Assembly (NCBI RefSeq): GCF_053078305.1
Contig: NZ_CP166879.1
Strand: one strand, 5' to 3'
DNA: 64,000 nt
The position numbers and the translations under genes are program-made. Below, one piece after another: positions 5,872 through 34,642 of the stretch. The notes beneath the pieces were generated by a model. It searched no databases and was not told where the DNA came from. It saw nothing but the letters and a program-made list of their open reading frames with translations. Positions within the stretch are counted from its first letter, which is position 1. The number at the start of each line of letters is the position of its first letter.

Positions 5872-7905
5872 TTATTTCACCTGATGACCCGGTTTAGCAC
5901 CGGCATCCGGGCTTAGCAGGAAAATATCTTTCCCGCCAGGACCGGCAGCCATCACCATGCCTTCAGAGATACCGAAGCGCATTTTACGTGGTGCCAGGTT
6001 AGCCACCATAATGGTGTGACGACCAATCAGTGCCTGCGGATCTGGGTAAGCAGAACGAATGCCGGAGAAGACATTGCGTTTTTCACCGCCGAGATCCAGC
6101 GTCAGGCGTAGCAGTTTGTCAGAACCTTCAACAAACTCTGCGTTTTCAATCAGCGCCACGCGCAGGTCAACTTTGGCGAAGTCGTCAAAGGTGATGGTTT
6201 CCTGAATCGGATCATCTGCCAGTGGGCCAGTAACTGGCGCGGCAGCTGCTTTCACTTCTTCTTTAGACGCTTCCACCAGTGCTTCAACCTGCTTCATATC
6301 TATGCGGTTATACAGCGCCTTGAACGGATTCACTTTATGGCCCAGCAGCGGTTGCTGGATACCATCCCAGGTCAGTTCTGTATTGAGGAATGCTTCTGCA
6401 CGTTCAGTCAGTTTCGGCAGTACCGGTTTCAGGTAGGTCATCAGCACGCGGAACAGGTTGATGCCCATCGAGCAAATTGCCTGCAGGTCGGCATCGCGGC
6501 CTTCCTGTTTCGCCACCACCCACGGAGCCTGTTCATCGACATAGCGGTTAGCCAGATCAGCCAGCGCCATGATTTCGCGCACTGCTTTACCAAATTCGCG
6601 GCTTTCCCACGCTTCACCAATCACTTCAGCGGCATCAGTGAAGGTTTTGTACAACTGCGGGTCAGCCAGTTCGCTTGCCAGCACACCGTCAAAACGCTTG
6701 TTGATAAAGCCCGCATTACGAGAGGCCAGGTTAACCACTTTGTTAACGATATCGGCATTCACGCGCTGAACGAAATCTTCCAGGTTGAGATCGATATCAT
6801 CAATGCGCGAAGAGAGTTTCGCAGTGTAGTAGTAACGCAGGCTGTCGGCGTCAAAATGATTCAGCCAGGTGCTGGCTTTAATAAAGGTACCGCGAGACTT
6901 GGACATCTTCGCGCCGTTCACCGTCACATAGCCGTGAACAAACAGGTTGGTCGGCTTGCGGAAGTTGCTACCTTCCAGCATTGCTGGCCAGAACAGGCTG
7001 TGGAAGTAAACGATATCTTTACCGATGAAGTGGTACAGCTCGGCGGTGGAGTCTTTCTTCCAGTATTCATCGAAGCTTACGCTATCGCCGCGCTTGTCGC
7101 ACAGATTCTTGAAAGAACCCATGTAGCCAATCGGTGCGTCCAGCCAGACGTAGAAATATTTGCCCGGCGCGTTCGGAATTTCAAAACCGAAGTACGGTGC
7201 GTCGCGGGATATATCCCACTGTTGCAGGCCAGATTCAAACCACTCCTGCATTTTGTTTGCCACCTGCTCCTGCAACGCACCGCTGCGGGTCCATGCCTGC
7301 AACATTTCGCTGAAAGAGGGCAGATCAAAGAAGAAGTGTTCAGAATCACGCATTACCGGGGTAGCGCCAGAAACCACCGATTTCGGCTCGATCAGTTCAG
7401 TCGGGCTGTAGGTCGCGCCGCAGACTTCGCAGTTATCGCCGTATTGATCCGGGGATTTACATTTCGGGCAGGTGCCTTTCACAAAACGGTCCGGCAGGAA
7501 CATGCCTTTTTCCGGATCGTACAGCTGAGAGATGGTGCGGTTTTTAATAAAACCGTTTTCTTTCAAGCGAGTATAGATAAGCTCAGACAACTGGCGGTTC
7601 TCTTCGCTGTGCGTCGAGTGATAGTTGTCATAGCTGATGTTAAAGCCTGCGAAATCAGTCTGATGCTCCTGACTCATTTCGCCAATCATCTGCTCCGGGG
7701 TGATACCAAGCTGCTGAGCTTTCAGCATGATCGGTGTACCGTGGGCATCGTCGGCGCAGATGAAGTTGACCTCGTGGCCGCGCATTCGCTGGTAACGGAC
7801 CCAGACATCAGCCTGGATGTGCTCCAGCATATGGCCGAGGTGGATTGAGCCGTTAGCGTACGGCAGTGCGCACGTCACCAGAATTTTCTTCGCGACTTGA
7901 GTCAT
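5872..7905 (-). CDS. metG: Methionine--tRNA ligase
   Basis: ORF translation contains [26 protein letters not shown] (HIGH-type motif) and KMSKS (in ...[10 protein letters not shown]...). Start taken at the MTQ methionine, 3 codons inside the track ORF. Confidence 0.95.
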
Positions 7906-8036
7906 AGTAGGCATTACTTCTTAATAGTGAAAAGGGGTTAGATAGTACCAAATGGGAAAATGTTAAGTAAGTACTTCTCTATATTCTTCAGGTAAACTAT
8001 CAGCTGATGGTTTATCTATACAAAAAAGGAGTCGGG

Positions 8037-9146
8037 ATGAACGAACAATCCCAGGCCAAATCACCAGAAGCCTTGCGCGCAATGGTCGCCGGGACACTGG
8101 CCAATTTTCAGCACCCAACCCTGAAGCATAACCTCACCACGCTGAAAGCGTTGCACCATGTCGCCTGGATGGACGACACGTTGCATGTGGAACTGGTTAT
8201 GCCATTCGTCTGGCATAGCGCGTTTGAAGAGTTAAAAGAGCAATGTAGCGCCGAACTGCTGCGTATCACCGGGGCGAAAGCTATCGACTGGAAACTGTCG
8301 CACAATATCGCCACCTTAAAACGCGTGAAGAATCAGCCGGGTATTAATGGCGTGAAGAACATCATTGCGGTCAGTTCCGGTAAAGGCGGCGTGGGTAAAT
8401 CCTCCACGGCGGTAAACCTGGCGCTGGCACTGGCGGCGGAAGGGGCGAAAGTCGGCATTCTGGACGCCGATATCTACGGCCCATCAATTCCCACCATGCT
8501 GGGCGCAGAAAATCAGCGTCCAACTTCGCCGGACGGTACCCATATGGCACCGATTATGTCTCATGGCCTGGCAACCAATTCAATTGGTTATCTGGTCACT
8601 GACGACAATGCGATGGTGTGGCGTGGACCGATGGCGAGCAAGGCGTTAATGCAGATGTTGCAGGAAACCTTGTGGCCGGATCTCGACTATCTGGTGCTTG
8701 ATATGCCGCCAGGCACCGGTGACATTCAATTGACGCTGGCGCAAAACATTCCAGTAACTGGTGCAGTCGTGGTCACCACCCCGCAGGACATCGCGTTGAT
8801 CGATGCGAAAAAAGGCATTGTGATGTTCGAGAAAGTCGAGGTTCCGGTGCTCGGTATTGTCGAGAACATGAGTGTGCATATTTGCAGTAACTGTGGTCAC
8901 CATGAACCGATTTTCGGTACCGGTGGTGCAGAGAAACTGGCTGAAAAATACCATACACAGCTGCTGGGGCAGATGCCGTTACACATCTCCTTACGTGAGG
9001 ATCTCGATAAAGGCACGCCAACGGTTATCAGCCGTCCGGAGAGCGAATTTACCGCTATCTACCGCCAGCTGGCTGACCGCGTTGCAGCTCAGCTCTACTG
9101 GCAGGGTGAAGTCATTCCAGGCGAGATTTCCTTCCGCGCGGTCTAA
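8037..9146 (+). CDS. mrp: Fe-S cluster carrier ATPase Mrp/ApbC
   Basis: Translation has the P-loop SGKGGVGKSST and a CxxC motif (CSNCGHHE). Divergent from metG as in E. coli. Start taken at MNEQSQAKSPE. Confidence 0.92.
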   Translation: MNEQSQAKSPEALRAMVAGTLANFQHPTLKHNLTTLKALHHVAWMDDTLHVELVMPFVWHSAFEELKEQCSAELLRITGAKAIDWKLSHNIATLKRVKNQPGINGVKNIIAVSSGKGGVGKSSTAVNLALALAAEGAKVGILDADIYGPSIPTMLGAENQRPTSPDGTHMAPIMSHGLATNSIGYLVTDDNAMVWRGPMASKALMQMLQETLWPDLDYLVLDMPPGTGDIQLTLAQNIPVTGAVVVTTPQDIALIDAKKGIVMFEKVEVPVLGIVENMSVHICSNCGHHEPIFGTGGAEKLAEKYHTQLLGQMPLHISLREDLDKGTPTVISRPESEFTAIYRQLADRVAAQLYWQGEVIPGEISFRAV

Positions 9147-9176
9147 CGCCTATTAACCATTCTGGTTATTCTTCAT

Positions 9177-9217
9177 ACACCGCAGAGATGTTACATTGAT
9201 GCGGTGTATTTGTTTTT
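9177..9217 (+). terminator. Probable intrinsic terminator after mrp
   Basis: Hairpin acaccgcag...ctgcggtgt followed by atttgttttt. Confidence 0.5.
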
Positions 9218-9407
9218 GCCGCATTAATGAACACTTATTTAATACTGCGAATATTCTGCGGACCTTCGTCCGAAACTCTACAAAGTCGATTGATCGTACA
9301 GGCAATGCTTCATTATCATCCTTCGTGCTGTGTAGTGGATGTACAGCTATAGTTTGTTATGCACTCATTCTATCCAGGCATAACCTTTACTACAGGGATA
9401 ACGTTCA

Positions 9408-9689
9408 ATGAATAAGTATTGGCTGTCAGGAATTATTTTTCTTGCCTATGGATTGGCTTCTCCCGCGTTCTCTTCAGAGACTGCCACATTAACGATTAAT
9501 GGCAGGATCAGTCCCCCAACATGCAGTATGGCTATGGTTAATAGTCAACCTCAACAGCATTGTGGTCAGTTAACGTATAATGTCGATACCCGTCATCAGG
9601 TTTCTTCGCCCGTCAAAGGTGTAACGACAGAAGTGGTTGTTGCAGGTAGTGATAGCAAACGTCGAATCGTGTTAAATCGCTACGATTAA
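9408..9689 (+). CDS. yehE: Small secreted protein at the head of the yeh fimbrial locus
   Basis: 93-aa ORF with an N-terminal signal-peptide-like stretch MNKYWLSGIIFLAYGLASPAFS; sits between mrp and yehD as in E. coli. Confidence 0.7.
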   Translation: MNKYWLSGIIFLAYGLASPAFSSETATLTINGRISPPTCSMAMVNSQPQQHCGQLTYNVDTRHQVSSPVKGVTTEVVVAGSDSKRRIVLNRYD

Positions 9690-9719
9690 TTTGGCAACCT
9701 GATTTTAATTGCATTTAGA

Positions 9720-9759
9720 AAGCCGAAATCATTTATATAAATGATTTCGGCTTTTTTTA
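9720..9759 (+). terminator. Probable intrinsic terminator after yehE
   Basis: Long hairpin aagccgaaatcatttatataaatgatttcggctt followed by ttttttt. Confidence 0.5.
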
Positions 9760-9982
9760 TTGATATCAACAATACCATTTACATAAATCTACATTAATTA
9801 ATAGATGCGATAAATATTTAATACTCTTAAGTATTTGTTGTATTTATATTGCAATGGTTAATTTGTTTTAAATCAATAAAACAATATGTTTACATTGCGG
9901 CAACTTTTTTGATGTGAGAAATTTGTTTCCAAGAGATACAGACTCTTAACAACCAAAAATAAATTTTATTAAGGAACATATT

Positions 9983-10525
9983 ATGAAACGTTCAATTATT
10001 GCTGCCGCTGTCTTTTCTTCTTTTTTTATGAGCGCTGGAGTATTTGCTGCAGACGTTGATGCCGGAACATTAACTATTAAAGGGAATATTGCAGAATCTC
10101 CGTGTAAATTCGAAGCGGGTGGTGATTCAGTAAGTATTAATATGCCGACTGTACCAACCACTGTCTTTGAAGGTAAAGCTAAATATTCTACCTATGATGA
10201 TGCAGTCGGTGTAACCAGCAGCATGTTAAAAATTAGCTGCCCGAAAGAAGTTGCTGGTGTAAAACTCTCGTTGATTACCAACGATAAAATAACTGGTAAC
10301 GATAAGGCGATAGCCAGTAGCAACGATACTGTGGGTTACTATCTCTATTTAGGTGATAACAGCGATGTCCTGGATGTTTCTGCACCTTTTAATATTGAGA
10401 GTTATAAAACAGCGGAAGGTCAATATGCTATTCCGTTTAAAGCAAAATACCTGAAACTGACAGATAACTCAGTGCAATCAGGTGATGTGTTATCTTCTCT
10501 GGTTATGCGTGTGGCGCAGGATTAA
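9983..10525 (+). CDS. yehD: Fimbrial major subunit (chaperone-usher pathway)
   Basis: 180 aa with signal peptide MKRSIIAAAVFSSFFMSAGVFA and a fimbrial-subunit-like C-terminus; first gene of a subunit–chaperone–usher–adhesin set. Confidence 0.85.
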   Translation: MKRSIIAAAVFSSFFMSAGVFAADVDAGTLTIKGNIAESPCKFEAGGDSVSINMPTVPTTVFEGKAKYSTYDDAVGVTSSMLKISCPKEVAGVKLSLITNDKITGNDKAIASSNDTVGYYLYLGDNSDVLDVSAPFNIESYKTAEGQYAIPFKAKYLKLTDNSVQSGDVLSSLVMRVAQD

Positions 10526-10562
10526 TAAATAAAATTGCAAGTTTCTCTAGGTAATAAACATG

Positions 10563-10588
10563 GCCGCTATCCCCATGGCGGCTTTTTA
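10563..10588 (+). terminator. Hairpin between major subunit and chaperone genes (possible attenuator)
   Basis: gccgctatccccatggcggc followed by ttttt. Confidence 0.4.
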
Positions 10589-10605
10589 ATTTAAGAGGCA
10601 TTAAG

Positions 10606-11280
10606 ATGAAAGGATTATTATCTTTACTCATTTTTTCTATGGTCCTTCCTGCACATGCCGGAATTGTTATCTACGGGACGCGCATTATTTACCCGGCAGA
10701 AAATAAAGAAGTTATGGTGCAGTTGATGAACCAGGGAAACCGTTCTTCGCTGCTGCAGGCGTGGATTGATGATGGCGATACGTCATTACCACCAGAAAAA
10801 ATTCAGGTTCCTTTCATGTTAACGCCACCAGTGGCAAAAATAGGGGCAAATTCCGGGCAGCAAGTAAAAATCAAAATTATGCCGAATAAACTGCCCACTA
10901 ATAAAGAAAGCATTTTTTATCTGAATGTTCTGGATATTCCACCAAATAGTCCAGAACAAGAAGGTAAGAATGCACTGAAGTTTGCGATGCAAAACAGAAT
11001 CAAATTGTTTTACCGGCCGGCGGGTATTGCTCCGGTAAATAAAGCGACCTTTAAAAAGTTACTGGTAAATCGCAGTGGCAATGGATTGGTGATAAAAAAT
11101 GACTCAGCTAATTGGGTGACGATTTCGGATGTCAAAGCTAATAATGTCAAAGTCAATTATGAAACTATTATGATTGCCCCCTTAGAAAGTCAGAGTGTTA
11201 ATGTCAAAAGTAATAATGCAAATAACTGGCATCTGACCATTATCGATGACCATGGCAACTATATTAGTGACAAAATTTAA
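10606..11280 (+). CDS. yehC: Fimbrial periplasmic chaperone (PapD-like)
   Basis: 224 aa with signal peptide; the yehD–yehC–yehB–yehA arrangement is typical of a chaperone-usher operon. Confidence 0.85.
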   Translation: MKGLLSLLIFSMVLPAHAGIVIYGTRIIYPAENKEVMVQLMNQGNRSSLLQAWIDDGDTSLPPEKIQVPFMLTPPVAKIGANSGQQVKIKIMPNKLPTNKESIFYLNVLDIPPNSPEQEGKNALKFAMQNRIKLFYRPAGIAPVNKATFKKLLVNRSGNGLVIKNDSANWVTISDVKANNVKVNYETIMIAPLESQSVNVKSNNANNWHLTIIDDHGNYISDKI

Positions 11281-11295: not shown

Positions 11296-13776
11296 ATGTT
11301 GAGAATGACCCCACTTGCATCAGCAATCGTAGCGTTATTGCTCGGCATTGAAGCTTATGCAGCTGAAGAAACCTTTGATACCCATTTTATGATAGGTGGA
11401 ATGAAAGACCAGCAGGTTGCAAATATTCGTCTTGATGATAATCAACCCTTGCCGGGGCAGTATGACATCGATATTTATGTCAATAAGCAATGGCGCGGGA
11501 AATATGAGATCATTGTTAAAGACAACCCGCAAGAAACATGTTTATCAAGGGAAATTATCAAGCGGTTAGGCATTAATAGCGATAACTTCGCCAGCGGTAA
11601 GCAATGTTTAACATTTGAGCAACTTGTTCAGGGTGGGAGCTATACCTGGGATATCGGGGTTTTTCGTCTCGATTTCAGTGTCCCGCAGGCCTGGGTGGAA
11701 GAACTGGAAAGTGGCTATGTTCCACCGGAAAACTGGGAGCGGGGTATTAATGCGTTTTATACCTCTTATTATGTGAGTCAGTATTACAGTGACTATAAAG
11801 CGTCGGGTAATAGTAAGAGTACATATGTACGTTTTAACAGCGGGTTAAATTTACTGGGGTGGCAACTGCATTCTGATGCCAGTTTCAGTAAAACAAATAA
11901 CAATCCAGGGGTGTGGAAAAGCAATACCCTGTATCTGGAACGTGGATTTGCCCAACTTCTCGGCACGCTTCGCGTGGGTGATATGTACACATCAAGCGAT
12001 ATTTTTGATTCTGTTCGCTTCAGAGGTGTGCGGTTGTTTCGTGATATGCAGATGTTGCCTAACTCGAAACAAAATTTTACGCCACGGGTGCAGGGGATTG
12101 CTCAGAGTAACGCGCTGGTAACTATTGAACAGAATGGTTTTGTGGTTTATCAGAAAGAGGTTCCTCCTGGCCCGTTTGCGATTACAGATTTGCAGTTGGC
12201 CGGTGGTGGAGCAGATCTTGATGTCAGCGTGAAAGAGGCGGACGGTTCGGTAACCACCTATCTGGTGCCTTATGCAGCCGTGCCAAATATGCTGCAACCC
12301 GGCGTGTCGAAATATGATTTTGCGGCGGGCCGTAGCCATATTGAAGGGGCGAGCAAACAAAGTGATTTTGTCCAGGCGGGTTATCAGTATGGTTTTAATA
12401 ACTTATTGACGCTGTATGGTGGCTCGATGGTCGCGAATAATTATTACGCGTTCACTTTGGGGACTGGCTGGAATACACGCATTGGTGCCATTTCCGTCGA
12501 TGCCACGAAGTCGCATAGTAAACAAGACAACGGCGATGTGTTTGACGGGCAAAGTTATCAAATTGCCTATAACAAATTTGTGAGCCAAACGTCGACGCGT
12601 TTTGGTCTGGCGGCCTGGCGTTATTCGTCGCGTGATTATCGGACATTTAATGATCACGTTTGGGCTAACAATAAAGATAATTATCGCCGTGATGAAAACG
12701 ATGTCTATGACATTGCCGATTATTACCAGAACGATTTTGGCCGTAAAAATAGCTTTTCTGCCAATATGAGCCAGTCATTGCCAGAAGGCTGGGGTTCTGT
12801 GTCATTAAGTACGTTATGGCGAGATTACTGGGGGCGTAGCGGCAGTAGTAAGGATTATCAGTTGAGTTATTCCAACAACCTGCGACGGATAAGCTATACC
12901 CTCGCGGCAAGCCAGGCTTATGACGAGAATCATCATGAAGAGAAACGTTTTAATATTTTTATATCGATTCCCTTTGATTGGGGTGATGACGTTTCGACGC
13001 CTCGTCGGCAAATATATATGTCTAACTCAACGACGTTTGATGATCAGGGGTTTGCCTCAAATAATACGGGATTATCAGGAACAGTAGGGAGTCGGGATCA
13101 GTTCAATTATGGTGTCAACCTGAGTCATCAACATCAGGGAAATGAAACGACAGCTGGAGCGAATTTAACCTGGAACGCGCCGGTTGCGACAGTGAATGGC
13201 AGTTATAGTCAGTCGAGTACTTATCGACAGGCTGGAGCCAGTGTTTCAGGGGGCATTGTCGCCTGGTCGGGTGGCGTTAATCTGGCGAACCGTCTTTCCG
13301 AAACGTTTGCTGTGATGAATGCGCCAGGAATTAAAGATGCTTATGTCAATGGGCAAAAATATCGCACAACAAACCGTAATGGAGTGGTGGTATACGACGG
13401 AATGACACCTTATCGGGAAAATCACCTGATGCTGGATGTGTCGCAAAGCGATAGCGAAGCAGAATTGCGCGGTAACCGGAAAATTGCCGCCTCTTATCGC
13501 GGCGCGGTTGTACTGGTTAATTTTGATACCGATCAGCGCAAGCCCTGGTTTATAAAAGCGTTAAGAGCGGATGGGCAACCATTAACGTTTGGTTATGAAG
13601 TCAATGATATCCACGGTCATAATATTGGCGTTGTCGGCCAGGGAAGTCAGTTATTTATTCGCACCAATGAAGTACCGCCATCGGTTAATGTGGCAATTAA
13701 TAAGCAACAAGGACTTTCATGCACAATCACCTTCGGTAAAGAGATTGATGAAAGTAGAAATTATATTTGCCAGTAA
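11296..13776 (+). CDS. yehB: Fimbrial outer-membrane usher
   Basis: About 826 aa with a signal peptide, the size expected for a fimbrial usher. Start taken at MLRMTPLASA. Confidence 0.88.
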   Translation: MLRMTPLASAIVALLLGIEAYAAEETFDTHFMIGGMKDQQVANIRLDDNQPLPGQYDIDIYVNKQWRGKYEIIVKDNPQETCLSREIIKRLGINSDNFASGKQCLTFEQLVQGGSYTWDIGVFRLDFSVPQAWVEELESGYVPPENWERGINAFYTSYYVSQYYSDYKASGNSKSTYVRFNSGLNLLGWQLHSDASFSKTNNNPGVWKSNTLYLERGFAQLLGTLRVGDMYTSSDIFDSVRFRGVRLFRDMQMLPNSKQNFTPRVQGIAQSNALVTIEQNGFVVYQKEVPPGPFAITDLQLAGGGADLDVSVKEADGSVTTYLVPYAAVPNMLQPGVSKYDFAAGRSHIEGASKQSDFVQAGYQYGFNNLLTLYGGSMVANNYYAFTLGTGWNTRIGAISVDATKSHSKQDNGDVFDGQSYQIAYNKFVSQTSTRFGLAAWRYSSRDYRTFNDHVWANNKDNYRRDENDVYDIADYYQNDFGRKNSFSANMSQSLPEGWGSVSLSTLWRDYWGRSGSSKDYQLSYSNNLRRISYTLAASQAYDENHHEEKRFNIFISIPFDWGDDVSTPRRQIYMSNSTTFDDQGFASNNTGLSGTVGSRDQFNYGVNLSHQHQGNETTAGANLTWNAPVATVNGSYSQSSTYRQAGASVSGGIVAWSGGVNLANRLSETFAVMNAPGIKDAYVNGQKYRTTNRNGVVVYDGMTPYRENHLMLDVSQSDSEAELRGNRKIAASYRGAVVLVNFDTDQRKPWFIKALRADGQPLTFGYEVNDIHGHNIGVVGQGSQLFIRTNEVPPSVNVAINKQQGLSCTITFGKEIDESRNYICQ

Positions 13777-13791: not shown

Positions 13792-14826
13792 ATGAAAATT
13801 CGCATAATGCTATTTATATTAATGATGATGGTTATGCCAGTGAGTTATGCTGCATGTTATGGCGAGTTGTCAGCACAGCATAATTTGGTTGTTCAGGGGG
13901 ATTTTGCGCTAACTCAAAATCAAACAGCAACTCATACATATACTTTTAATGATACTTCTTGCGTCAGTACTAATACAGTAGCGCAGATAGACCCCTCGGA
14001 TATTGTGATTGGACTCTATAATGACACCATCAAACTTAAGTTGCATTTTGAATGGGAGAAAAAAGGTAGCATCACGCTTTCAAATAACCAAACTAGTTTT
14101 ACGAGTGGATATAATGTCACTGTGACATCGGCAGCGAGCGATGCCATAGTGAATTTGTCTGGTGGGGGAAGTGGATCTCTCATGATTAACAGTGTCGCGA
14201 CATTAAGCAGTGCTTCATCATCTACTCGTTTGGCTGCTTTTTTACAATTTGCAGGTTGTTTTCTAGGCGGCACCTCATGGGATATCTGTGTGCAAAACTA
14301 TAAAAATGCATTATCAAAAAATGCAGGTGTCTATTCCTTTAATCTGGCATTGTCATATAACCCGATAACAACGACCTGCAAACCTGATGATTTATTAATT
14401 ACTTTAGAGAGTATTCCAATTTTACAATTACCAACCACAGGTAACAAAGCAACAATAAATAGTAAACAAGGGGATATTATTCTGCGCTGTAAAAATTTAT
14501 TAGGTCAGCAGAATCAAACATCACGGAGAATGCAGGTGTATTTATCAAGTTCTGATTTGTTAGCCGGCAGTAACACGATCCTGAAAGGTGCAGAAGATAA
14601 TGGAGTCGGATTTATTCTTGAAAGTAATGGTTCGCCAGTCACACTTTTAAATATCACTAACAGCAGTAAAGGATACACAAATTTAAAAGAAATTGCGGCA
14701 AAGTCAAAACTTACAGATACAACGGTTTCAATTCCGATAACTGCCAGTTACTACGTCTACGATACAAATAAAATTAAATCTGGCGCACTGGAGGCAACCG
14801 CATTAATCAACGTGAAATACGACTAA
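13792..14826 (+). CDS. yehA: Fimbrial adhesin-like protein
   Basis: 344 aa with signal peptide; last gene of the yeh operon. Confidence 0.8.
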   Translation: MKIRIMLFILMMMVMPVSYAACYGELSAQHNLVVQGDFALTQNQTATHTYTFNDTSCVSTNTVAQIDPSDIVIGLYNDTIKLKLHFEWEKKGSITLSNNQTSFTSGYNVTVTSAASDAIVNLSGGGSGSLMINSVATLSSASSSTRLAAFLQFAGCFLGGTSWDICVQNYKNALSKNAGVYSFNLALSYNPITTTCKPDDLLITLESIPILQLPTTGNKATINSKQGDIILRCKNLLGQQNQTSRRMQVYLSSSDLLAGSNTILKGAEDNGVGFILESNGSPVTLLNITNSSKGYTNLKEIAAKSKLTDTTVSIPITASYYVYDTNKIKSGALEATALINVKYD

Positions 14827-32228: not shown

Positions 32229-32633
32229 GATCGTATGTGCCTTTATGATTGGTCTGTAGATAGTGTAGAGCAGAAAAGAAAAGGTGGAGTCAGAACAGGA
32301 TGAAAGTCGGAGGATAAATAGTCAGTTCAAGTATGGAGGATTCAGTGGTTACCACCAGGAGCTTGCAATGGGGACAGCGAATACTAACGGCAGCCACCGA
32401 TAAATTTCAAAAAAGAGCATATACCTAATATTCAACTAAACAGTGGCATCTTCAATATAATATATTAAAGCCTCCATGGAGTTACCCGGAAGGGCCTCCA
32501 TGTCCGTAATTCCTACTTATGTAGGAAATGTTGTACAGAACATTTATTATAATCCTATTCAATTATAATAATCATGCCATTATTATATTTAAACACTAGA
32601 GAGTGTCGTTGGTATTTAATGGGGGAAGGTGAG

Positions 32634-32951
32634 GTGAACAAGATAGCTGCTATATCATTAATTAGTGTTTTTCTTATGTCTGGTTGTGCTGTGCATAATG
32701 ATGAGACAAGTATCGGTAAATTTGGCCTTGCATATAAAAGTAATATTCAGCGTAAACTCGATAACCAATACTACACCGAAGCCGAAGCTTCTTTAGCCAG
32801 GGGCAGAATATCTGGTGCAGAAAATATAGTAAAAAATGATGCAGCCCATTTCTGTGTTACTCAGGGCAAAAAAATGCAGATAGTTGACCTGAAGACAGAA
32901 GGTGCAGGATTACATGGCGTCGCTCGTCTGACATTCAAATGTGGAGAGTGA
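32634..32951 (+). CDS. yegR: Small lipoprotein
   Basis: Start taken at the GTG giving MNKIAAISLISVFLMSGCAV (lipobox LMSGC), inside a longer track ORF. Confidence 0.65.
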   Translation: MNKIAAISLISVFLMSGCAVHNDETSIGKFGLAYKSNIQRKLDNQYYTEAEASLARGRISGAENIVKNDAAHFCVTQGKKMQIVDLKTEGAGLHGVARLTFKCGE

Positions 32952-33109
32952 GAATATTTTTTGGTAAGCGTCAAACATGCGCGTTCTGGTTGTGCTTAGC
33001 CGGAACCTGTGCGAGCACGATGCCAATAAGTGAAAGGCATCGTGCTATGAAGGGAAATTCTATCGATGTGGTCAATGGAAGATGGTTACCAGAGATAGGG
33101 CTTATGCAT

Positions 33110-33196
33110 AAAAAATAAGCCCGTGTAAGGGAGATTACACAGGCTAAGGAGGTGGTTCCTGGTACAGCTAGCATTTTATGGGTTATGTTTTTCAGC
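33110..33196 (-). ncRNA. cyaR: CyaR (RyeE) Hfq-dependent small RNA
   Basis: The minus strand reads gctgaaaaacataacccataaaatgctagctgtaccaggaaccacctccttagcctgtgtaatctcccttacacgggcttatttttt, which matches the CyaR sequence as I remember it, including its terminator hairpin and U-tail. Confidence 0.85.
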
Positions 33197-33280
33197 GAAA
33201 CGGATGATAACCTTAATAAATGCAGCTGTATGTGATCGGTTTCTAAGAATTTTCCATCCGGGAAAAATAATCGAAATTAA

Positions 33281-34642
33281 TCACTTACCGTGTGGGTTAC
33301 GCGTGGTTTCCCCGGAGAAATTACGCATCAGCAGAGCGTAATTGAGCTCAAGATCCTGCGGGACCGGGAGCCACACAGTATAACCATCGCCTGGTGCGAC
33401 CGGCATCGCTTCGCCTTTGGCGTTTTCCATATGCTCAAGGGTAAAGTTAATGTTGCCTTGCGGCGTCATCAGCTCAAGGCTGTCGCCAACGGAGAATTTA
33501 TTTTTCACCGCTACCGCCGCGAGGTCCCCCTTGCGCTCACCGGTAAACTCACCAACAAACTGCTGGCGGTCAGAAACCGAATAACCGTATTCGTAGTTCT
33601 GATAATCGTCGTGAGTATGACGACGCAGGAAACCTTCGGTATAGCCACGATGCGCCAGACCTTCCAGAGTTTCCAGCAGGCTGGTATCGAACGGTTTGCC
33701 CGCAGCGGCATCATCGATAGCTTTACGATAAACCTGTGCGGTGCGTGCGCAATAGTAGAAAGATTTAGTACGGCCTTCGATCTTCAGCGAATGCACGCCC
33801 ATTTTGGTCAGGCGCTCAACGTGGGCGATGGCACGCAGATCTTTCGAGTTCATAATGTAAGTGCCGTGTTCGTCTTCAAACGCGGTCATATACTCGCCCG
33901 GACGCTGGGCCTCTTCGATCATAAACACTTTGTCGGTTGGCGCGCCAATACCAAGCGTAGGCTCAACGTTTTGCACCGGAATCGGCTCGTACTTGTGTAC
34001 GATGTTGCCAACGTCATCTTCTTTACCTTCCTGTACGTTGTACTCCCAGCGGCAGGCGTTGGTGCAGGTTCCCTGGTTCGGGTCGCGTTTGTTAATGTAG
34101 CCCGAGAGCAGGCAGCGGCCGGAGTAGGCCATGCACAGTGCGCCGTGAACGAAGATCTCGATCTCCATATCCGGCACCTGATTGCGGATCTCTTCAATCT
34201 CTTCCAGCGACAGCTCGCGAGAGAGGATCACGCGGGTCAGGCCCATTTGCTGCCAGAATTTCACCGTCGCCCAGTTCACGGCGTTAGCCTGTACCGAGAG
34301 ATGGATCGGCATTTCAGGGAAGTGCTCACGCACCAGCATAATCAGCCCTGGATCGGACATAATCAGCGCATCCGGCCCCATTTCCACCACCGGTTTCAGG
34401 TCACGGATAAAGGTTTTCAGCTTGGCGTTGTGCGGTGCAATGTTGACCACGACATAAAACTTTTTCCCCAGCGCGTGGGCTTCATTGATGCCGAGCTGAA
34501 GGTTTTCGTGGTTGAATTCGTTGTTGCGCACACGCAGGGAGTAACGCGGCTGGCCCGCATAAACAGCATCTGCGCCATAAGCGAAAGCGTAACGCATATT
34601 TTTCAGCGTTCCCGCCGGGGAAAGGAGTTCCGGTTTAAACAT
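33281..34642 (-). CDS. yegQ: Peptidase U32-family protein
   Basis: 453 aa. Confidence 0.9.
   Translation of the reverse strand: MFKPELLSPAGTLKNMRYAFAYGADAVYAGQPRYSLRVRNNEFNHENLQLGINEAHALGKKFYVVVNIAPHNAKLKTFIRDLKPVVEMGPDALIMSDPGLIMLVREHFPEMPIHLSVQANAVNWATVKFWQQMGLTRVILSRELSLEEIEEIRNQVPDMEIEIFVHGALCMAYSGRCLLSGYINKRDPNQGTCTNACRWEYNVQEGKEDDVGNIVHKYEPIPVQNVEPTLGIGAPTDKVFMIEEAQRPGEYMTAFEDEHGTYIMNSKDLRAIAHVERLTKMGVHSLKIEGRTKSFYYCARTAQVYRKAIDDAAAGKPFDTSLLETLEGLAHRGYTEGFLRRHTHDDYQNYEYGYSVSDRQQFVGEFTGERKGDLAAVAVKNKFSVGDSLELMTPQGNINFTLEHMENAKGEAMPVAPGDGYTVWLPVPQDLELNYALLMRNFSGETTRNPHGK

Follow-up and report, generated by a model that had tools for sequence, protein, structure and literature searches.

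A probable composite control region upstream of the cryptic Yeh (Stc) fimbrial operon of Escherichia coli

RESULTS

Genomic context of the yehE-yehD intergenic region

The DNA analyzed here, referred to below as the window, is a stretch of 64,000 nucleotides of an Escherichia coli chromosome (contig NZ_CP166879.1) whose orientation is reversed relative to that of K-12. In the part considered, metG lies on the minus strand (5872-7914) and is followed on the plus strand by apbC/mrp (8007-9146), yehE (9408-9689), yehD (9983-10525), yehC (10606-11280), yehB (ending at 13776), and yehA (13792-14826). A comparison with Pfam assigned the DUF2574 domain to the 93-residue product of yehE (E = 4e-52), Fimbrial to yehD, PapD_N/C to yehC, Usher to yehB, and Fimbrial to yehA, which describes a chaperone-usher operon preceded by a DUF2574 gene, with yehD encoding the major fimbrial subunit. 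The RefSeq annotation of a 99.7% identical genome concurs with these gene calls. The 1501 bp around the region are 99.7% identical to those of strain EC21Z-063 and were found in 5422 of 5426 complete E. coli genomes, and the K-12 copy of the yehE-yehD intergenic region is 98.0% identical to that of the window.

The Yeh locus is found at the same syntenic position in Escherichia, Citrobacter, and Salmonella, and yehE and yehD are adjacent and on the same strand in all three genera. Yeh was previously described as a core-associated, ancient fimbrial type that is the orthologue of Salmonella Stc and occupies the same locus in Citrobacter (PMC3559732). Whole-word matches to “yehE” in the literature searched were author names only.

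Several other features of the locus were observed. Two deeply divergent yeh haplotypes, with approximately 80% nucleotide identity, are found in E. coli, one of the O157:H7 / PRO_A type and the other of the K-12 type. The divergence spans from approximately position 9480 of the window to at least 13650 and sets in suddenly within yehE, while apbC, just upstream, is ∼100% identical. This abrupt onset points to a recombination boundary inside yehE. In E. coli NCTC9967, the segment from yehE through yehB was lost via IS1, leaving yehA truncated, and strain 123636 carries a copy of IS1A within yehD. Directly 3' of apbC, a hairpin followed by a T-run (CACCGCA...TGCGGTG TATTTGTTTTT) at 9180-9215 is probably the apbC terminator, and it is the sole patch of the apbC-yehE gap that is conserved across genera.

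Base composition of the region

Positions 9690-9982 (293 bp) correspond exactly to the gap between the stop codon of yehE (9689) and the ATG of yehD (9983). The G+C content of this gap is 23.9%, versus 50.5% for the whole window, making this locus the lowest-G+C 293-bp stretch of the 64 kb. Only 0.05% of the 293-bp windows are as low, all of them at this locus, and the minimum (23.2%) is reached by the one that starts at 9696. Among 14 other ORF-poor gaps of the window, the median G+C content is 44%, and the lowest separate gap has 39%. Runs composed only of A and T reach 18 nt (9955-9972) and 14 nt (9810-9823), and the motif TTAATTAATA is located at 9794-9803. An earlier sequence-only reading had pointed to about 290 bp of very AT-rich DNA, with long A/T runs and motifs of this kind, ahead of the major subunit gene of yehDCBA. 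These observations bear it out, the composition being well beyond chance and the region ending at the start codon of a gene whose identity is given by both Pfam and RefSeq.

A covarying terminator at the 3' end of yehE

The terminator scan and the repeat finder located a candidate intrinsic terminator of yehE on the plus strand at 9717-9761. It is composed of an 18-pair hairpin, which forms a perfect 36-bp palindrome (9719-9754), followed by T7, which gives a stable hairpin with an immediate U-run in the orientation of yehE. The RNA fold has an energy of −22.9 kcal/mol (z = −6.5). In an alignment of 10 loci from Escherichia, Citrobacter, and Salmonella, 7 of 14 stem pairs display compensatory changes and 92% of the cells are paired; none of 500 shuffles matched this covariation. 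This indicates that the first 72 bp of the interval, about a quarter of it, represent the 3' end of the preceding gene. The view of the whole interval as an upstream or promoter region, as held in the sequence-only reading, is therefore retained for the remainder and given up for this first quarter.

The apex of the terminator (9731-9742) has a conservation pattern of its own. No variation was seen over the three genera in five pairs (ATCAT/ATGAT) or in the loop side ATGAATGAT, whereas the basal stem covaries freely. Since an invariant apex is unneeded in a plain terminator, a second role for this element is possible.

The covarying terminator also bears on how yehD is transcribed. It could be argued that yehD has no promoter of its own and that transcription starting at the yehE promoter reads through into it, forming a yehEDCBA unit, which would make the AT-rich gap a mere spacer; indeed, one study writes the operon as “yehEDCBA” (bioRxiv 10.1101/2024.06.20.599902), and the two genes keep their strand and adjacency in the three genera. 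A very stable hairpin with T7 that is maintained between these genes by compensatory changes argues against a read-through operon. Moreover, an ArcA operator and a conserved block lie downstream of the terminator (see below), and yehDCBA is the transcription unit in expression studies (PMC5797941, PMC3798270). Read-through as the source of yehD expression thus appears improbable.

The region as an H-NS-silenced promoter island

In K-12, yehD/yehE is one of 78 “promoter islands” (entry 2190229_357; Panyukov and Ozoline 2013, PMC3661553), and in that study, it was scored as H-NS-bound in the ChIP data of Kahramanoglou and Oshima and flagged as foreign by several predictors. When the old K-12 coordinates are shifted by an offset of +1977, anchored on the ArcA site, the entry maps to roughly 9643-9999 of the window. 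Islands are listed by a length of at least 300 bp, which is reached between yehD and yehE in K-12, and by a high density of promoter-like sites. Using a simple position-weight-matrix scan, where the authors of the list used PlatProm, we obtained 17 promoter-like sites scoring 5 bits or more within the 293 bp, versus a mean of 3.7 per window, which places the region in the top 0.3%. Only 2 of the sites in 9690-9982 reach 8 bits, and a strict consensus scan gave no excess of promoter-like sites in the same interval. This shows that the excess is made up of weak sites, and many weak promoter-like sites fit the description of a promoter island.

The region shares with the K-12 islands, which include this same locus, an AT-rich composition and many weak promoter-like sites; little productive transcription and occupancy by H-NS are documented for the K-12 copy. 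It does not differ from them in kind, but it resolves here into a terminator, a variable spacer, and a conserved block, a division that is absent from the published account of the island. Similar islands are located upstream of other cryptic fimbrial operons (yadN, sfmA, elfA, ybgD, yfcV, and fimA). Elsewhere in the window, the highest density of weak sigma-70-like sites was observed in a 1-kb ORF-poor gap with a G+C fraction of 0.40, at ∼32229-33289.

The yehDCBA operon is among the listed members of the H-NS regulon, and the same source, citing Korea et al. 2010, calls it cryptic and H-NS repressed (PMC5797941). Overproduction of SlyA, an H-NS antagonist, raised the expression of yehDCBA 3.6-fold (PMC5797941), and published work showed that yehD and yehC are induced by overproduction of BolA. 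The operon lies within a silenced extended protein-occupancy domain, but loss of occupancy by itself did not induce it (bioRxiv 10.1101/2024.06.20.599902), which indicates that H-NS is not the sole barrier to expression. The H-NS binding data were obtained with K-12, a strain other than the one considered here. Given that these experiments concern a near-identical copy of the region, the proposal of a nucleoid-protein-silenced cryptic fimbrial promoter, which the sequence-only reading had made, is supported and was already known.

A variable spacer is followed by a conserved block

Downstream of the terminator, the interval falls into two parts. The first is an AT-rich spacer (9762-9830; 20% G+C) in which the composition is kept and the sequence is not. 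Its identity is 58% to the divergent E. coli allele, determined over 9762-9833, and 40 to 54% to the Citrobacter and Salmonella loci. Two approximate matches to the H-NS motif TCGATAAATT are found in the spacer, at 9796 and 9807, each with 2 mismatches, which is weak evidence given the composition; three such 2-mismatch matches are present in the interval or at its edge, and none with fewer than 2 mismatches was found within 9690-9982. These properties suggest that the spacer may be a platform for the nucleation and spreading of H-NS.

The second part is a block on the plus strand (9831-9951) that contains the predicted promoter, the ArcA operator, and the start of the leader. Between the two E. 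coli haplotypes, positions 9834-9951 are 95.8% identical, versus approximately 80% for yehE, yehD, and yehC. The block is 77 to 82% identical in most of the Citrobacter and Salmonella loci and 68% in C. amalonaticus. For comparison, identity to the window in these two genera is 81 to 84% for the 3' end of apbC, 59 to 61% for yehE, and 55 to 57% for yehD, and the YehD proteins are 31 to 37% identical. Within the block, a core (9865-9904) retains 82 to 95% identity in Citrobacter and Salmonella, and the highest value of the conservation profile, 0.90 in the 9870-9899 bin, exceeds any point in apbC. Conservation remains high through the signal-peptide codons of yehD to ∼10050 (about 0.8), on a par with the promoter block, and then falls to 0.3 to 0.4 in the hypervariable mature pilin (10050-10525).

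The block is retained in Escherichia albertii, E. whittamii, and the cryptic Escherichia clades, as well as in five Citrobacter species, Salmonella enterica, and Salmonella bongori. In every species, the intergenic length is held at 277 to 296 bp and the G+C content at 24 to 30%. A repeated cassette was considered and rejected: the block is present in a single copy per E. coli genome, and the match found in two places is the palindrome matching itself.

The DNA upstream of Salmonella stcABCD has the same position, with apbC, yehE, and the subunit gene in this order, the same intergenic length and G+C content, and the same conserved block, including the sequence of the ArcA box. It differs in that the major subunit is only about 35% identical and in that the hairpin of the S. 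enterica subunit gene has no U-run. The literature searched yielded no regulatory data on Salmonella stc, including stcA and H-NS.

This pattern of conservation can be weighed against the idea that the AT-richness is a relic of horizontally acquired DNA, coated generically by H-NS and devoid of specific regulatory information. Such an origin is suggested by the G+C content of the segment from yehE to yehA (41%, versus 50.5% for the window) and by genomic-island predictors, which flag the locus (PMC5797941, PMC3661553). A relic of this kind would not be expected at the same position in Escherichia, Citrobacter, and Salmonella, with its intergenic length held constant, a block about as conserved as the housekeeping gene apbC, and an ArcA box that is even more so. 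A passive relic is accordingly quite improbable, and the locus illustrates that a composition-based “genomic island” call can fall on DNA that is old and was inherited vertically.

The conservation peak coincides with the ArcA operator

The published ArcA~P operator maps to 9864-9906 on the minus strand. It was identified here by its sequence, which has four direct-repeat elements and 1 mismatch to that of Park et al. 2013; the repeat scores, ChIP, and expression data are those of that study (PMC3798270). There, direct repression of yehDCBA by ArcA was reported, with an ArcA~P box of four repeats, 5.4-fold derepression in an arcA mutant, an ArcA ChIP peak at yehDCBA in one replicate only, and an entry of “no TSS” for yehD (PMC3798270 supplement). 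The published box coincides with the peak of the conservation profile, which indicates that this peak is the ArcA operator; no other part of the locus is as well conserved.

The best conserved plus-strand sigma-70-like pair, as obtained with a position-weight scan across the 10-locus alignment, lies at 9867-9896 and consists of a −35 element TTTAAA (9867-9872), an 18-bp spacer, and a −10 element TACATT (9891-9896). From this pair, transcription of yehD would start near 9903 and give a leader of ∼80 nt. Given the “no TSS” entry (PMC3798270), we infer this promoter from its conservation. It is a weak one, with 4 of 6 consensus matches in each hexamer and an 18-bp spacer. A stricter consensus scan retrieved no plus-strand promoter in 9690-9982, and no entry for a yehD start site near the locus was found in the Cappable-seq supplement text searched.

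The operator overlaps this predicted promoter, and ArcA covering the DNA from −35 to +1 would be the usual arrangement for ArcA repression. Indeed, the locus resembles the multirepeat promoters repressed by ArcA (Park et al. 2013) in having four direct repeats, 11 bp apart, over the predicted −35 to +1 region and in the derepression of yehDCBA in the arcA mutant. It differs from them in that the position of the operator relative to the promoter is a predicted one and that the ChIP peak was seen in one replicate.

A second conserved −10 element, TATATT (9845-9850), offers an alternative. If this were the main yehD promoter, transcription would start near 9857 with a leader of ∼125 nt, most of the block would be transcribed as leader, and ArcA would be a roadblock instead of occluding the promoter. 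The element has 5 of 6 matches to the consensus and is invariant in 9 of the 10 loci, and conservation begins at ∼9831, just upstream of it. Against this assignment, it is accompanied by neither a conserved −35 element nor a TG extension, and neither conserved RNA structure nor covariation was seen in the leader that it would produce. These bases would serve just as well as the −10 of a minus-strand promoter. This putative, conserved minus-strand pair (9843-9871) is composed of a −35 element TTAAAA (9871-9866) and a −10 element TATAAA (9848-9843), the latter being a perfect TATAAT in C. gillenii, C. sp. On2M, C. koseri, and S. bongori. We regard TATATT as the main promoter as unlikely, though this is an alternative to be kept in mind, and retain the TTTAAA/TACATT pair as the prediction.

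Two other candidates in this part of the block were set aside. Judged by eye, the CRP half-site TGTGA (9913-9917) has a poor second half-site, and its spacing shifts by 1 nt in Citrobacter. An upstream ORF of 8 codons, ATGTTTACATTGCGGCAACTTTTTTGA (9886-9912), was rejected as a leader peptide, given that it reads GTG in K-12 and is shortened by a TAA in Citrobacter.

The leader and the putative CsrA site

The predicted leader contains a small inverted repeat, AAGAG-N7-CTCTT (9931-9947, plus strand), with conserved arms and a variable loop, and ends in the Shine-Dalgarno sequence AAGGA (9971-9975), 7 nt before the ATG. The CsrA site reported for the yehD leader has the GGA of the latter as its core, and ATTAAGGAA is conserved in 9 of the 10 loci. 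Gel shift experiments with the O157:H7 yehD leader showed binding of CsrA, which was abolished by a GG-to-CC change (PMC11287998). In the same work, ethanolamine was found to raise YehD in EHEC (PMC11287998). The binding evidence comes from O157:H7, an allele different from the present one, in which only approximately 5 positions, counted by eye, match the 12-nt CsrA consensus RUACARGGAUGU.

The strong conservation of this noncoding DNA could also be explained if the block were an RNA element, that is, a structured leader, a riboswitch, or a small RNA on either strand. The AAGAG-N7-CTCTT hairpin would fit such an element, but its changes are one-sided and of the G-U type, with zero compensatory pairs, so that the evidence for RNA pairing is weak. 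The consensus fold of the last 85 nt before the ATG across the 10 loci consists of one 5-pair hairpin at −2.5 kcal/mol, with zero covariation, and a structured leader was rejected on this result. A scan of 8900-11000 against Rfam 15 (E ≤ 1) found no family at threshold; the best matches were microRNA-like look-alikes of the terminator palindrome, with 20 to 28 bits versus thresholds of 62 to 102. On the minus strand, the conserved promoter-like pair faces the palindromic terminator, but the DNA between the two is the least conserved part of the region. An RNA element is therefore very unlikely to account for the block.

No sign of a phase-variation switch

Many fimbrial operons are phase variable, and this AT-rich DNA contains inverted repeats, which raises the possibility of a switch that is either invertible, like fimS, or dependent on methylation, like pap. 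With those switches, the region shares an AT-rich, nucleoid-protein-bound regulatory stretch upstream of a fimbrial major subunit gene. The only strong inverted repeat is the terminator palindrome; the other pairs are 71 to 83% matches, as is typical of AT-rich DNA, and no recombinase gene was found nearby, so that the flanking inverted repeats and site-specific recombinase of a fimS-like switch are both lacking. The pair of GATC sites within Lrp sites that characterizes the Dam/Lrp switch of pap is likewise missing, as GATC is absent from 9690-9982 and the nearest one is at 9506. Moreover, no inverted form was seen: of 5426 complete genomes, 5271 gave an alignment of the 1501-bp stretch that stays on a single strand and covers at least 80% of it. 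Phase variation at this site is extremely unlikely.

The hairpin between yehD and yehC

The sequence-only reading had also placed a hairpin and a T-run between yehD and yehC, and these are present in the sequence. A GC-rich stem of 9 pairs with the loop CCCC (10562-10583, plus strand) is followed by T5 (10583-10587), making 10562-10587 a candidate attenuator or 3'-end stabilizer. In this strain, it has the GC hairpin and U-run of an intrinsic terminator, with a z-score of only −2.0. A GC-rich hairpin after the subunit gene is found in the E. coli alleles and in the Citrobacter and Salmonella loci that were folded. The U-run is missing in many of them, among these the O157-type (O157:H7) allele, S. 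enterica, and C. youngae, and RT-PCR in EHEC revealed one transcript spanning the locus (PMC11287998). Together, these observations weaken a model of pure termination, and the lack of conservation of the U-run suggests that the conserved role may be protection of the yehD 3' end as much as termination. The hairpin with T5 probably terminates some transcripts or stabilizes the 3' end of yehD, and either effect would favor the major subunit over the assembly proteins.

Stem-loops are also found after the major subunit gene in the pap and fim chaperone-usher operons. The yeh hairpin resembles them in being GC rich and located between the major subunit gene, which it follows directly, and the chaperone gene, and an excess of subunit message is expected in both cases; the difference is that the U-run is not conserved among the yeh/stc alleles.

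The annotation of yehC in K-12 was found to differ at this site. The gene is annotated with 720 nt in K-12 and 675 nt in other genomes (window 10561-10606; NC_000913.3 2191600-2191645). A 1-nt deletion in K-12 changes the hairpin loop from CCCC to CCC and brings an upstream ATG within the hairpin into frame. Since the ATG at 10606, which is preceded by a Shine-Dalgarno sequence, is the conserved start, the K-12 start is probably an annotation artifact.

DISCUSSION

Taken together, the data indicate, with a probability of about 80%, that the interval between yehE and yehD is a composite region controlling the cryptic Yeh (Salmonella Stc) chaperone-usher operon and that a terminator, an H-NS spacer, a block with the ArcA operator and the predicted promoter, and a leader with a putative CsrA site follow one another in it. 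Experiments published for the K-12 or O157 copies have established H-NS occupancy, repression by H-NS and ArcA, induction by SlyA and BolA, and binding of CsrA. To these, the present analysis adds the extreme composition, the covariation of the terminator, the two-part pattern of conservation, and the finding that conservation is highest at the ArcA operator.

In the proposed mechanism, the strong intrinsic terminator at 9717-9761 would end the transcription of yehE and insulate the downstream part. The spacer of ∼70 bp and the surrounding AT-rich DNA would then provide the platform where H-NS nucleates and spreads, so that neither the many weak promoter-like sites nor the real promoter would be active under laboratory conditions. 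The sequence-conserved block of ∼120 bp (9831-9951) would hold the specific control elements, with ArcA occluding the promoter and thereby repressing it under anaerobiosis. Finally, transcripts that are made would carry a short A/U-rich leader ending in AAGGA (9971-9975), where CsrA would bind. The promoter hexamers, the start site, occlusion by ArcA, and the role of the yehD-yehC hairpin are the predicted parts of the overall model.

For the most part, the analysis confirms what was known, namely, that the AT-rich DNA ahead of a “cryptic” fimbrial operon serves H-NS as a platform for silencing. The yehE terminator, the ArcA operator, the reported CsrA site at the ribosome-binding site, and the conservation across genera of the promoter-near half go beyond the sequence-only reading. 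What is added to the published knowledge is the division of the region into a terminator, a spacer defined by composition only, and a sequence-specific block, the match between the peak of conservation and the ArcA operator, and the promoter prediction. The silenced region thus splits into a composition-only part and a sequence-specific part, whose most conserved 40 bp are the experimentally found ArcA operator.

This division raises the tentative possibility, which we hold at well below even odds, that the Yeh/Stc operon is not truly “cryptic.” The block with its ArcA core has remained near constant since before the split of Escherichia, Citrobacter, and Salmonella, while the pilin has diverged to ∼35% identity. 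If the possibility is correct, a conserved induction program linked to oxygen or redox state would be implied, and a dedicated factor may read the other invariant motifs, which are TTATTTGTTG, TGTGAG, AAGAG-N7-CTCTT, and the apex of the yehE terminator. In that case, the block would be a direct pointer to the inducing condition that has long been sought. Yeh/Stc fimbriae matter for colonization by EHEC and for LEE expression (PMC11287998). The division of the region offers a compact, well-delimited stretch on which to map start sites and to carry out footprinting and mutagenesis, work that could reveal the natural signal that induces the Yeh/Stc fimbriae.
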